This document shows, piece after piece, positions 29,102 to 42,260 of a stretch of 64,000 nucleotides of DNA (positions are counted from its first letter, which is position 1; each line of letters starts with the position of its first letter). The translations under genes and the position numbers were made by a program. Under the pieces are notes generated by a model, which had not been told where the DNA came from, made no database searches, and worked only from the letters and a program-made list of their open reading frames with translations. The stretch covers positions 1-64,000 of the IMG/VR virus record IMGVR_UViG_2974704529_000001; one strand, 5' to 3'. The DNA is from a virus (Duplodnaviria > Caudoviricetes).

Positions 29102-29434
29102 TTAGGCTCCCTTCGCGTATATGGACGCTTCGTATTCGGGGCAGTAGTAGGCGACCGCGCCGCTAAGGATGCCGACCGCCAGGGCCTTGTCCCCTAAAAG
29201 GTTGGTGTCGTCAGCCAAGATGTCTCGCCATGACGCGCCGTCCGCCAGTTGGGCGCACCGCGACTGAGCGATGGGGACGGCCATGTTGCAGTTAACGTTG
29301 CGCCCCGTCTGCCCGGTCACGTAGGTACAGAACTCGTAGTCGTCCTGCGGCGCGGCGGCGGCTTGCGGGGCGCTTAGGACGCTGAGCGCAAGGGCTGCAA
29401 GCCCCACAAGCGCGCGTGCGTGTCGATTAACCAT
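29102..29434 (-). CDS. secreted protein, DUF732-like
   Basis: Signal peptide; C....A...C..L and A..YYCP motifs of mycobacterial DUF732. Confidence 0.6.
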   Translation of the reverse strand: MVNRHARALVGLAALALSVLSAPQAAAAPQDDYEFCTYVTGQTGRNVNCNMAVPIAQSRCAQLADGASWRDILADDTNLLGDKALAVGILSGAVAYYCPEYEASIYAKGA

Positions 29435-30120
29435 TGGTCGATCTTGGCCCGGTTAGGTTCGTCTGGCAAGGAAGTCGTAGCTTCCGCGCGCTGGATCATG
29501 TCGCGCCAGTCTGCGATGTCCTCTAGCACTTGCGACTGGGCGACCTCGCCGTTGCGGATGCTCAGCAGGTAGTCCCGGCGCAGCTCCATCATGGGCATCT
29601 GCATTTCGCCGCTGACCAGCATTTCGTGGCCCTGCATGAGGAGCCGGAGCGCATGGAACGCGGCCTTAGTGTCGTAGCCGTGGGCCTCAATTAGCTCGGG
29701 CCGGTTGGTGCGCGGCGCGCGTTCGCCGGTTAGCCGGGCGGACATGGAGTCTGCGTATCCCATGTGCCGGGCAGCTAACCGCTTGCTAAGGAACATCTGC
29801 CGGTTCTCTTGGAGCCTGATCATGTCAGGGAAAATCAGGTTAGGCGTGAACAGTAGGGTCATGACCGTAGGGTTGCCCTGGCAAACGAGGCTCACATATT
29901 TGCGCAGCCCGTAAAACTGCGTCTCGGAGTCCCCGGCCTCACTCTTAACACCTTCGGGCTTGTCGCGCCTACGCACGGCCCCGACCTGCGGCTTAAGTCC
30001 GATTAGCGCTTCTGGCGGATCGGGATAGATACCGATGTAGTCATGGTCGGAGTCCTCACGGTTTAGGCCGTGGGCAAACGATCCAATCTCGCCAATGATC
30101 AATGGCTTTATCTCAGCCAC
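29374..30120 (-). CDS. pol-beta superfamily nucleotidyltransferase (RlaP-like, RNA-repair associated)
   Basis: GSFAHGLNREDSDHDYIG motif, GNPT..LLF, YDTK...HALRL. Confidence 0.8.
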   Translation of the reverse strand: MAEIKPLIIGEIGSFAHGLNREDSDHDYIGIYPDPPEALIGLKPQVGAVRRRDKPEGVKSEAGDSETQFYGLRKYVSLVCQGNPTVMTLLFTPNLIFPDMIRLQENRQMFLSKRLAARHMGYADSMSARLTGERAPRTNRPELIEAHGYDTKAAFHALRLLMQGHEMLVSGEMQMPMMELRRDYLLSIRNGEVAQSQVLEDIADWRDMIQRAEATTSLPDEPNRAKIDQWLIDTHARLWGLQPLRSAS

Positions 30121-35283: not shown

Positions 35284-35370
35284 GGATAACGTGCTGGCCG
35301 CGCTGTCGCTGGCCGCACTGATCCTGCTGGGTGCCATCGTGCTTAACGATCTGTTCGCGGCGTGGCACGC

Positions 35371-35784
35371 ATGAGTACAGCGCCCGTACGGAAACTTGGT
35401 TCTATTGTTTCCATATCCCCCGAAAACTACGTAGAGTTATTAGTAGAGGGGGAGGGGATGAGAAAGTTCCGAGACGTGATCAACGAAGCGCGAAAGGTCG
35501 CAATGTTGAATCCACTTGGACGTAACACCGGTAAGGGTTACTACGAGTATGGAGAGCCTTGCTGCTTCTTCGGTCACGTCTTGGAACGTCTCGGACTTCC
35601 CGTCGCCAAATGGGAAATTGCCCTCTTTAACACCTACACACTTGCTGAACTGCCCTGGCCGCATTGGGGCATCGAAGAACCTAACGATTATCAGCGGCTA
35701 TGGATCGCTAAGGTCCAAGCTGCTGCCGATAACGGAGATTCGTGGATTATCGCTATTGCGATGGCTGACGCGACTCTCATTTAG
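35371..35784 (+). CDS. hypothetical protein
   Basis: EPCCFFGHVLERLG motif; ATG 35371. Confidence 0.6.
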   Translation: MSTAPVRKLGSIVSISPENYVELLVEGEGMRKFRDVINEARKVAMLNPLGRNTGKGYYEYGEPCCFFGHVLERLGLPVAKWEIALFNTYTLAELPWPHWGIEEPNDYQRLWIAKVQAAADNGDSWIIAIAMADATLI

Positions 35785-36012
35785 ATTTCAGCTAAGCACC
35801 TGAGGCTGACTAAACAAATCAGCTGCACATTGTAGAAGTACCTAGTTCTATCTGTTGACCTATACGAAGTAACTCCGTTGCCGGAGCGTCTGTGTTCAGT
35901 GTCCAGACGGCAGAGTGGTTCGCCTGCAAGTAAGTCAGCATGAGTACGTCCGCACTACGAATCGGTCCCTGATGGGTTTATGTCCTGTCGGCAGCCGGAG
36001 ACGTGCGGGGTA

Positions 36013-36118
36013 GCGATACGCGGTTGGTACCCGAGGGTGACCGCATGAAAACGCTCTGGCGGGGTCCGTGGCCTTATCTACGGGCCGGGGCATCCAGGTT
36101 CGATTCCTGGGTATCGCA
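36013..36118 (+). ncRNA. enlarged tRNA-like RNA (106 nt)
   Basis: Acceptor GCGATAC/GTATCGC plus discriminator A; T-arm CCAGG-TTCGATT-CCTGG; two long hairpins replace the D and anticodon arms. Confidence 0.6.
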
Positions 36119-36272
36119 CTGGGCCGGGAGGTTGAGGCGCACGGCACTAACGGGCATTAGTGCTTAGGCGCGGGACGTAAGGGTGTGGCGTTCGCGCTGC
36201 CTTGTTTGCGCTCCCTCCCGGCCATTCTCTTTCACCACCGATCACCACATCACCACCACGAAAGGGCGCGCT

Positions 36273-36635
36273 ATGACGGTTATCTACTTGGGCGAACCGA
36301 CCGGCCCGCGACTCCGGAGCCTGACCCGTACCAAAGAGCAGGAGCTTGACGCCTGGCTTACCAGTGCGCTTAAGAACCCGCCCAAAAAGCGCGACCTGCC
36401 TAGCGACCTGGCCGACTTCACCAGGGCTTTAAGTGCCTTAGCTAAGCGTCGGGGTATTCAGTTCCATTTCAACGGGGACCGTATGCGCGTACGTGGCGAA
36501 GTGGTCTTTGGCAGGAACATTCCCGGCTGTGTTGGCGGGTCGAAACGAAAGGTCACGGCGGGTAACGAACGTGAGGCGTTCACGAAACATGGGCAGCGCG
36601 TCGAACCCTGGAATATGAGGGATTGGCGTGAATGA
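36273..36635 (+). CDS. hypothetical protein
   Basis: ATG 36273 with AAAGGG RBS. Confidence 0.6.
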   Translation: MTVIYLGEPTGPRLRSLTRTKEQELDAWLTSALKNPPKKRDLPSDLADFTRALSALAKRRGIQFHFNGDRMRVRGEVVFGRNIPGCVGGSKRKVTAGNEREAFTKHGQRVEPWNMRDWRE

Positions 36636-36689
36636 GTTGACACCAACGGTACAAGGCATGTACCGTACTGATTGCGAGGAGTTCAGAAA

Positions 36690-36869
36690 GTGGCAAAGCA
36701 GTTTTCTTGCCCGCTGGAATGTGGAGCCTCTTACTCCGAGGAGTACCAGCTCCACCTTCACGAGTACGCATCCGAAAAAGGCATCCTTCCGACGTGTGGT
36801 CGGGGGGCCGAACGAAAGGCGCACTATGCCGGAGGCGATCACGCTGCAAACGGACTTGAGGCAGCCTGA
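36690..36869 (+). CDS. small zinc-finger-like protein
   Basis: GTG after GAGGAG RBS; CPLEC...HLH motif. Confidence 0.45.
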   Translation: MAKQFSCPLECGASYSEEYQLHLHEYASEKGILPTCGRGAERKAHYAGGDHAANGLEAA

Positions 36870-37659
36870 GAAGCTAATGCTGGCCGGGGACTGGCACGGC
36901 AATCTGCCGTGGGCGTTCAAGGCGATCCACTTCGCTAAGGCGAACGGCGCAGACACGATTCTGCACGTGGGCGACTTTGGCTGGTGGGCACCGATTGAGC
37001 GGACGTTCCAGTTCCTCTCGGAGGTCGACAAAGAGCTTAAGACGACCGGCATTGACCTCCTGTGGGTCGACGGCAACCACGAGGACCACGCGTTCTGGCA
37101 CCAGTTCAACAAGCCGGGCGCGTATCCACAGACGTTCATGTCCTACTCGTCCATCACGCACTTGCCGCGTGGTTTCCGGTGGAAGTGGTGGGGCGATACG
37201 TGGATGGCGCTGGGTGGCGCTCACTCGGTCGACCGGAGCTGGGCGACGGAGGGTGAAACCTGGTGGCCGGGCGAGTGGTTGCAGGACGACCAGCTTGAGT
37301 ACGCATGTCGACCGGGCAATGTCGACATCATCGTGGCGCATGACGCACCTACTAACGTCACGATCCCTGGCATTGTCCCCGGTAAGGCGATTTACCTGAA
37401 TATCGGTGGCCTTAAGCGCCGTGTTCCGCAGGTGGACTTGCTTAAGGCTGAGGAGCACCGCGCTCGCATTCAGCAGGTCGTGGACACGGTTAAGCCGGTC
37501 GAGTTCTACCACGGCCATTACCACCGGGCTTATCAGTCGTTGGCTCGTCATGAGGGCGGCGGCTACACCCTGTGTCGTGGCCTGGATAAGGACGAAACCA
37601 CGATGGCTAAGAACACCCATTTCATCACCGGAGGGACGCAGGATGACGACGACGACTAA
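36826..37659 (+). CDS. calcineurin-like metallophosphoesterase
   Basis: GDWHGN, HVGDFG, GNHED, AHDAP, HGHYH motifs. Confidence 0.9.
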   Translation: MPEAITLQTDLRQPEKLMLAGDWHGNLPWAFKAIHFAKANGADTILHVGDFGWWAPIERTFQFLSEVDKELKTTGIDLLWVDGNHEDHAFWHQFNKPGAYPQTFMSYSSITHLPRGFRWKWWGDTWMALGGAHSVDRSWATEGETWWPGEWLQDDQLEYACRPGNVDIIVAHDAPTNVTIPGIVPGKAIYLNIGGLKRRVPQVDLLKAEEHRARIQQVVDTVKPVEFYHGHYHRAYQSLARHEGGGYTLCRGLDKDETTMAKNTHFITGGTQDDDDD

Positions 37660-42127: not shown

Positions 42128-42253
42128 TGTGGACTCCTACAGCAATTACAACGCTTCCACTGTTAATGGCGAGGTCTGGGTTCGAGTCCCAGTAGCGGCC
42201 CCGTGTCGCTGTAGCTTAAGGGCAGAGCGCGTATGCAAAAAACGGAGTCCAGT
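42128..42253 (+). ncRNA. Y-RNA-like unit 2 containing a circularly permuted tRNA-Asn(GUU)-like module
   Basis: TGGACTCC/GGAGTCCA closing stem; inside, in order: anticodon arm, T-arm, loop-closed acceptor stem, D-arm. Confidence 0.75.
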
Positions 42254-42260
42254 AAGCGGT

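Follow-up and report, generated by a model that had tools for sequence, protein, structure and literature searches.

Introduction

Phages encode stable RNAs that resemble transfer RNA (tRNA), for example RNA1 and RNA2 of phage T5, and these are the nearest described kind to the element analyzed here: a tRNA-like RNA domain at positions 36013-36118 (+ strand) of a 64,000-nucleotide (nt) stretch of viral DNA (Duplodnaviria; Caudoviricetes; IMG/VR record IMGVR_UViG_2974704529_000001, positions 1 to 64,000). This stretch, the window, comes from a Cluster L mycobacteriophage genome of 77,876 bp, of which it makes up the first 64 kb. The T5 RNAs (NC_005859.1, 'tRNA-like stable RNA with unknown functions') are phage-encoded, non-decoding and 125-144 nt long, and according to their folds they share the plan of the element, namely an acceptor-like stem, a D-like arm, an enlarged middle and a canonical T arm. 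They are located inside a tRNA gene cluster, whereas the Cluster L element lies 30 kb from the tRNA array, in the early region and within a larger RNA. No homology of sequence or model links them to the element; a covariance model of its tRNA frame scored only the true tRNAs in the T5 stretch. The 'species 1 and 2' RNAs of phage T4 (rnaC, rnaD) are reportedly further phage RNAs of this kind.

YrlA RNAs (RF02553) likewise mimic tRNA without decoding, and the YrlA RNA of Mycobacterium smegmatis has a 7-bp acceptor-like stem (PMC4201824). In YrlA the tRNA layout is circularly permuted: the ends are found in the Ro-binding stem on the anticodon side and a loop closes the acceptor, whereas the ends of the element are the acceptor itself and its middle is closed. 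Nearly all YrlA RNAs are reported within 4 kb of a Ro gene; with 4.5 kb between it and the Ro gene downstream, the element sits at the edge of this range. Class II tRNAs (tRNA-Leu, RF00005) have in common with the element the 7-bp acceptor stem, the 5-bp T stem with a UUCGAUU loop, the discriminator A and a D-like stem of 3-5 bp with GG, but the element lacks an anticodon stem-loop, its G8-C9 are paired and it carries an extra 4-bp helix in the D loop. In the engineered 'tRNA scaffold' of Ponchon and Dardel, a cargo hairpin is said to replace the anticodon arm of a tRNA body, which the cell then processes and stabilizes. That scaffold is artificial, whereas the Cluster L element is natural, occurs in one copy per genome and has a non-canonical D region. 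In mascRNA, from the 3' end of MALAT1 (RF01684), and in mitochondrial tRNA punctuation, ribonuclease P (RNase P) and RNase Z cut a tRNA-shaped element inside a longer transcript. With these eukaryotic and organellar systems the element has no homology and probably only a functional likeness; the mascRNA model gave nothing but chance-level matches in the window, away from the element.

The element is a real, conserved, unannotated RNA domain that is absent from Rfam; no published description of it, and no Cluster L transcriptome, was found in the literature searched. We propose with moderate confidence that it could serve as a module for RNA processing and stability, tRNA-like but non-decoding, which RNase P and RNase Z would cut, and that it would be one domain of a structured early RNA of ~370 nt (about 35863-36231, + strand) that is free of open reading frames (ORFs) and located between two early genes of Cluster L phages.

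Structure of the element

The 5' strand of the acceptor stem, GCGAUAC (36013-36019, + strand), pairs perfectly over 7 bp with GUAUCGC (36111-36117), which together with the discriminator A36118 forms the 3' end (36111-36118, + strand); CUG comes next and CCA is not encoded. Directly after the acceptor strand follows a 25-nt D-like hairpin, GCGGU...ACCGC (36020-36044, + strand), composed of an outer 5-bp stem (36020-24/36040-44), a bulge UGG (36025-27), an inner 4-bp stem (36028-31/36036-39) and the loop CGAG. The UGG bulge is a candidate equivalent of G18-G19. A linker, AUGAAAAC (36045-36052, + strand; ATGAAAAC in DNA letters), is unpaired in the minimum free energy (MFE) fold. The central arm (36053-36091, + strand) is a bulged hairpin flanked by GCTCTGGC...GCCGGGGC; it has an 8-bp outer stem, a 5-nt bulge GGGGU, a 6-bp inner stem and the loop CCUUAU. 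This arm represents one of several module types found in Cluster L, type A; the linker is specific to type A and is elsewhere exchanged along with the arm. The T arm, CCAGG-UUCGAUU-CCUGG (36094-36110, + strand), has a canonical loop; the motif GGTTCGAWTCC occurs once in the window as compared to 0.04 expected occurrences.

The MFE fold of 36013-36118 reached -51 kcal/mol (z = -3.2; 1 of 200 shuffles was as stable) and yielded the same four-way structure as the initial annotation, a short description made from the sequence alone, whose coordinates for the element were correct base for base. The 3' end varies with the subcluster: A-CCA is encoded in L3 and L4, and CCA is missing in L2 and in L1, where the end reads G-CAA.

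Conservation and covariation of the tRNA frame

Acceptor stem, D-like hairpin and T arm, together the tRNA frame, were present in all 15 relatives fetched, including phages of subclusters L1 (LeBron, Silverleaf) and L3 (Lolly9, Whirlwind). Of the 91 Cluster L records in which BLAST detected the flanks, 43 also matched the element itself. A covariance model built from the frame only recovered the element in 16/16 Cluster L sources (L1-L4), among them the L3 copies, which had been left out of model building and were nevertheless recovered at E 2e-5 and 9e-5. In the alignment of 16 frames, which was fitted to the model and favors structure, although the raw sequences carry the same changes, 96.7% of the cells were paired and double-sided changes occurred in 10 of 21 pairs. 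This level was reached by 0 of 500 shuffles, and slid controls were 33-52% paired.

The acceptor stem was paired in 100% of the cells over the 16 sequences and contained two pairs with double changes (GCGAUAC/GUAUCGC to GCGAUGA/UCAUCGC in L3). Double changes were found in 4/5 pairs of the outer D-like stem (GCGGU/ACCGC versus GUAGC/GCUAC in L3), and the UGG bulge of this hairpin is almost invariant. The T stem was likewise 100% paired, with double changes in 3/5 pairs (CCAGG, CCCGG, UCCGG, CCCAG, ACGGG). G.U pairs in the alignment identify the + strand as the RNA strand. The tRNA frame is under purifying selection for pairing; covariation in related phages had been suggested as a check by the initial annotation, and the stems are indeed kept by compensatory changes across L1-L4.

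The 20 nt at 36093-36112 recur unchanged in the T arm of the tRNA-Gln that the phage itself encodes (genome positions 65436-65455), and the T arms of the LeBron and Chaser elements match those of their tRNA-Cys genes over 20 and 17 nt, respectively. Gene conversion or convergence could be the cause of these identities.

Homologs outside Cluster L were searched for with sequence patterns. The 5' pattern matched only Cluster L genomes in IMG/VR, and four matches in 185,579 species genomes were chance matches inside coding sequence. The T-arm/acceptor pattern additionally matched about 75 uncultured gut viral contigs in IMG/VR, mostly from sample 3300045988, which carry a 70-nt tRNA-like gene with the acceptor GCGAUAC/GUAUCGC, a canonical T arm, an odd D region and a middle containing CUCAUGA. 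This family, unrelated to Cluster L, was matched because the pattern fixed the acceptor.

The exchangeable central arm

Between the D-like and T arms, at least seven unrelated module types were found, while the flanks are 70-100% identical; the element is a tRNA frame with a free central arm. Type A, shared at 90-97%, occurs in the window, in Bazzle and CELFI and in the L4 phages Chaser, Bromden and DyoEdafos. Type B is represented by 28 Faith1-like records, type C by the MkaliMitinis3 group and Douge, and type D by L1; Archie, Lolly9 and Whirlwind carry types E, F and G, respectively. Type C is a nested degenerate tRNA, of which the Douge copy scores 36.2 bits against the Rfam tRNA model and has a mismatched acceptor and an 8-nt anticodon loop. 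Both type A and type C span L2 and L4, despite surrounding genes that are only ~60-75% identical. Among the type A copies, three stem positions vary, each in a wobble-compatible way, while the loops differ (CCUUAU, CCAUAU, CCGUAU, CCGAAU); selection therefore seems to act on the helix and not on the loop letters.

The modules were found nowhere else in 50,697 phage records. No source for them was found in six genomes, where matches of 12-13 nt near attP were at chance level. A search for a co-inherited partner, comparing four type-A genomes with seven others, identified the module itself (36021-36100) as the sole segment of the 77.9-kb genome with the type-A distribution; two segments in common with Chaser alone and one that Mkali and Douge share were ordinary mosaic pieces of the tRNA region. 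Furthermore, no antisense target of the central arm became apparent: BLAST-short of the element against the window and the whole genome returned chance matches of 13 nt or less only, and duplex energies with the neighborhood of the tRNA array were at shuffle level in 9 genomes.

A larger structured RNA around the element

The element is located in an ORF-free gap of ~470 bp, which extends from about 35785 or 35804 to 36272. The initial annotation had seen no credible ORF there, which holds, as the only ORFs crossing the gap are mechanical and non-conserved. The larger RNA starts with three abutting conserved hairpins (35873-35927, + strand), for which RNAalifold on 13 sequences from L1-L4 yielded 19 pairs, five of them with compensatory double changes. 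An invariant block, CAAGUAAGUCAGCAUGAGUACGU (35927-35949, + strand), follows 64 nt upstream of the element and is unpaired in both the consensus fold and the centroid; no match to a promoter consensus was found in this block on the + strand. The next hairpin, closed by CCGCAC/GUGCGG (35949-36009, + strand), stops 3-4 nt short of the tRNA-like element. Every subcluster has a hairpin that always stops at this distance, with differing sequences in CELFI, Archie and L1.

On the other side, a multi-hairpin domain of ~105 nt closed by GGCCGGGAGG/CCUCCCGGCC (36121-36226, + strand) begins 2-3 nt after the discriminator; RNAalifold on 14 sequences gave 20 pairs, four with double changes. It is followed by a CA-rich linker and then by the Shine-Dalgarno sequence and ATG of the next gene (36273). 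Thus, conserved or compensated hairpins abut both ends of the element in all subclusters.

Complementarity to the phage tRNA array

The single-stranded block upstream of the element, CAAGTAAGTCAGCATGAGTACGT (35927-35949), is the perfect reverse complement of genome positions 65902-65924, a site in the rightward tRNA array (genome 64028-67863) beyond the window. This 23-nt complementarity is the only tie between the element and the array, which are ~30 kb apart. BLAST of the block against the array site returned E 2e-7 to 5e-7. The complementarity is found in 11/11 genomes, in four exactly mirrored versions of 27 nt in L1, 21-23 nt in L2, 25 nt in L3 and 25-26 nt including an indel in L4. The single difference in Bromden results in a U.G pair only if both + strands are RNAs.

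In L1 and L2, a tRNA-Ser(UGA) gene or pseudogene directly precedes the array target; in L4 it directly follows the target. Neither of the L3 phages has a Ser-like gene beside the target, which in Whirlwind begins 3 nt after tRNA-Lys(CUU) and in Lolly9 adjoins no called tRNA. In the genome of the window, the Ser-like gene abutted by the target (about 65809-65893) is degenerate: it has the anticodon loop CUUGAAA, its T loop is spoiled and a GCGGGGAGUCCCGC hairpin stands where a normal D arm would be. ARAGORN passes over it in this genome but calls it as tRNA-Ser in MkaliMitinis3 and Douge. A DUF4417 gene (genome 66001-66624, E 1.6e-60) lies inside the array, 77 nt downstream of the target.

Tests for known RNA families

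The element was compared with the RNA families that it might belong to. Of the features of a tRNA, it has the 7-bp acceptor stem and the 5-bp T stem with a loop of the GUUCRANYC type. A 5-bp anticodon stem with a 7-nt loop and U33 is absent, and its place is taken by an 8+6-bp bulged hairpin with a 6-nt loop; U8 and the 2-nt linker are also absent, since G8-C9 pair with G43-C44. ARAGORN called no tRNA or transfer-messenger RNA (tmRNA) gene in the window, where a weak or pseudogene call had been anticipated. Rfam 15 gave nothing for the element at gathering thresholds, and a search restricted to 231 nt (35950-36180) gave nothing even at E<=10. With no anticodon arm, no ARAGORN call and no match to the Rfam tRNA, tmRNA or YrlA models, the earlier statement that this is not a translatable tRNA stands.

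In L1, GenBank records of two phages, Silverleaf (726-809 of the fetched stretch) and Rose5, list a tRNA-Leu(caa) inside the element. ARAGORN repeated this borderline call in Silverleaf, whereas LeBron, which is nearly identical, received none. A mis-annotation is probable, because the boundaries of the call differ from those of the conserved frame.

A tmRNA was rejected, as the third pair is G3-C70 in 16/16 sequences and not G3:U70, and no tmRNA was called by ARAGORN. The upstream frame GCA AGU AAG UCA GCA UGA, considered as a tmRNA-like tag, is broken by an indel in L4. YrlA or another Y RNA (RF02553) was rejected as well: no match was obtained at E<=10, the ends of the element are the acceptor stem itself and the motif GNCGAAN0-1G is absent. 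An attP site or the 3' half of a host tRNA does not fit either, because attP is located upstream of int (PMC10865867) and the element has both acceptor strands.

The suggestion that the element is a ligand of the phage's Ro-like protein found no support: the YrlA topology and the GNCGAAN0-1G motif are absent, and the central arm is not conserved. The sequences GGUCCGU (type A) and GGUCCGA (type D) resemble the vertebrate Ro site and occur in no other module type. All 10 relatives carry the Ro-like gene, which makes presence or absence uninformative on a Ro link. Taken over topology, motif, model match and phyletic pattern, a role as Ro ligand is not supported.

Proposed function of the element

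The initial annotation had recognized neither the exchange of the central arm between phages nor the larger RNA of which the element is a domain, nor the complementarity of that RNA to the tRNA array. Among the roles that it had considered, a tRNA decoy is not supported, as the central arm does not look like that of a tRNA anticodon and has a loop that is free to vary within one type. A processing tag is favored by the wider anatomy, because terminal hairpins abut both ends of the element. The acceptor/T-arm minihelix, earlier singled out as the part that RNase P, RNase Z and the CCA-adding enzyme recognize, is the conserved and covarying part, and as far as sequence can tell it would fit such recognition. 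A 7-bp acceptor stem is a major determinant for RNase P, and in M. smegmatis this enzyme cleaves the tRNA-like YrlA Y RNA, which also acquires CCA in vivo (PMC4201824).

In the mechanism that we propose, the region would be transcribed together with the rightward early genes. The D-like arm with its GG bulge could form a tRNA elbow, and the acceptor stacked on the T arm would be read by the host enzymes of tRNA maturation, with the central arm acting as a structural spacer; as a spacer, the arm would be free to drift and to be swapped. RNase P would cut at 36012/36013, and RNase Z, or an endonuclease followed by exonucleases, would trim after A36118, whereupon CCA would be added. Three products are predicted. 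An upstream RNA of ~150 nt would begin with the three 5' hairpins, continue with the 23-nt block in single-stranded form and close with a 3' hairpin that stops 3-4 nt short of the cut; the second product would be the tRNA-like RNA of 106 nt; and the downstream mRNA would have its new 5' end buried in a long hairpin 2-3 nt past the cut. The upstream product may then pair with the transcript of the tRNA array over 21-27 perfect bp, a duplex that is a plausible substrate for RNase III.

Several observations weigh against this reading. Since RNase P needs the acceptor/T minihelix alone, the strong conservation of the D-like arm, including the letters of its loop, may hint at an additional function, and the wholesale replacement of the central arm, even by a nested tRNA-like sequence, exceeds the needs of a pure spacer. 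The 23-nt repeat could in principle be a site at the DNA level. The fold of the whole gap is no more stable than shuffles (z -0.58), nor is that of its upstream part (z -0.18); support for the larger RNA consequently rests on covariation. Furthermore, a consensus scan revealed no promoter and no clear terminator.

If the proposed processing is correct, it would be tRNA punctuation in a bacterial virus, with RNase P and RNase Z carving non-coding and coding RNAs from an early transcript, and it would tie this processing to antisense contact with the phage's own tRNA array. Cluster L phages depend on their tRNAs for lysogeny (PMC10865867), and they are equipped with a full set of RNA-repair functions. 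The exchangeable arm also offers a natural test bed for the share of the tRNA frame in RNA stability in mycobacteria, and the element is a possible natural scaffold for RNA expression in these bacteria.

Alternative explanations

The released 106-nt RNA might itself be the effector, with the frame providing ends, CCA and stability and the arm serving as a cargo that binds or titrates a protein. Candidate targets are the Ro-like protein, an RNA-repair enzyme of the phage or a defense nuclease of the host that attacks tRNAs, and different modules would have different targets. We regard this as possible, though rather unlikely, and keep it at that level because the arm has been replaced cleanly and repeatedly and the phage is rich in RNA-repair functions. 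The unrelated modules are individually well folded and were exchanged at structural boundaries across subclusters; the RNA-repair set comprises an RlaP nucleotidyltransferase, a metallophosphoesterase and the Ro-like protein with a YrlA-like RNA; and the T5 RNAs are a precedent for stable tRNA-like RNAs of phages in which the middle is enlarged. A cargo, however, is hard to reconcile with the free variation of the type A loop letters, which leaves no sequence-specific loop evident, and with the isolation of all these phages on one host strain despite their different modules. No phage partner co-varies with the modules, mimicry of an anticodon arm is limited to the degenerate nested tRNA of type C, and a Ro-binding motif is missing, the Ro-site-like heptamers being confined to types A and D. 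An extension of this idea, which we consider improbable, is a two-part regulator of the phage tRNA supply: a natural tRNA scaffold whose cargo arm engages a host tRNA-targeting defense or the phage RNA-repair/Ro set, together with a co-transcribed upstream RNA, released by RNase P, that controls processing of the array transcript by pairing perfectly with it. Module swapping between phages would then be the signature of an arms race.

It is very unlikely that the element is a relic, that is, a tRNA dimer or a class II (Leu-like) tRNA gene in decay and without present function. The borderline tRNA-Leu(caa) of L1, called by ARAGORN in Silverleaf and annotated there and in Rose5, would agree with decay, as would the score of the nested type C sequence against the tRNA model and the identity of the T arms in some genomes to phage tRNA-Gln or tRNA-Cys; yet compensation keeps the acceptor and T stems 100% paired from L1 to L4, where neighboring proteins are down to 60-75% identity, the ARAGORN call has boundaries other than the conserved frame and is lost in LeBron, and the flanking RNA domains are conserved too. 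Bacterial leucyl-tRNA synthetase ignores the anticodon. A charged but non-decoding tRNA-like RNA with A73 and a Leu-like upper body, which would donate or sequester an amino acid or mimic tRNA towards a sensor, is conceivable, given also the intact acceptor end with its discriminator A and the CCA that L3 and L4 phages encode. We nevertheless judge it highly improbable, considering the discriminator G in L1, the replacement of U8 by the paired G8-C9, the non-canonical D region and the lack of a transferase gene adjoining the element. Finally, we give hardly any credence to a DNA-level element, such as an origin, an array of protein-binding sites or a recombination site. The gap is conserved and ORF-free, and the recurrence of the 23-bp block as an inverted repeat 30 kb away might provide two protein-binding sites, but compensatory changes keep the pairing, G.U pairs occur on the + strand only, the T loop is canonical and the Bromden difference in the repeat is wobble-compatible for RNA. 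The reading as a processing and stability module remains the one that we favor.

Genomic neighborhood

The closest record to the window is that of phage Bazzle, with 89.5% identity across 35400-36700. The gap is bordered on its 5' side by an early gene of unassigned function (35362-35784, PHROG 572) and on its 3' side by another early gene (36273-36635, PHROG 5916), which is followed by a calcineurin-type metallophosphoesterase gene (36628-37659). In GenBank, all 43 L2-L4 records that match a 151-nt query around the element are without a feature annotated under the match. In L1, a small ORF has been placed at the position of the element (gp44 of LeBron), in addition to the tRNA-Leu call in the two records mentioned above.

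Genes and RNAs related to RNA repair were also noted elsewhere in the window. The Ro-like protein matches DUF2828, DUF7788 and VWA rather than the TROVE model. Just downstream of its gene, an RNA at 42130-42254 (+ strand) shows a sub-threshold match to the Rfam YrlA model (23.1 bits, E 0.018) with a permuted tRNA-like layout. LeBron additionally possesses an RNA ligase and a polynucleotide kinase (PMC13148394). The RlaP gene (29374-30120, - strand), annotated as 'nucleotidyl transferase', matches Pfam PF10127, the RNA-repair Pol-beta family, at E 9e-24.

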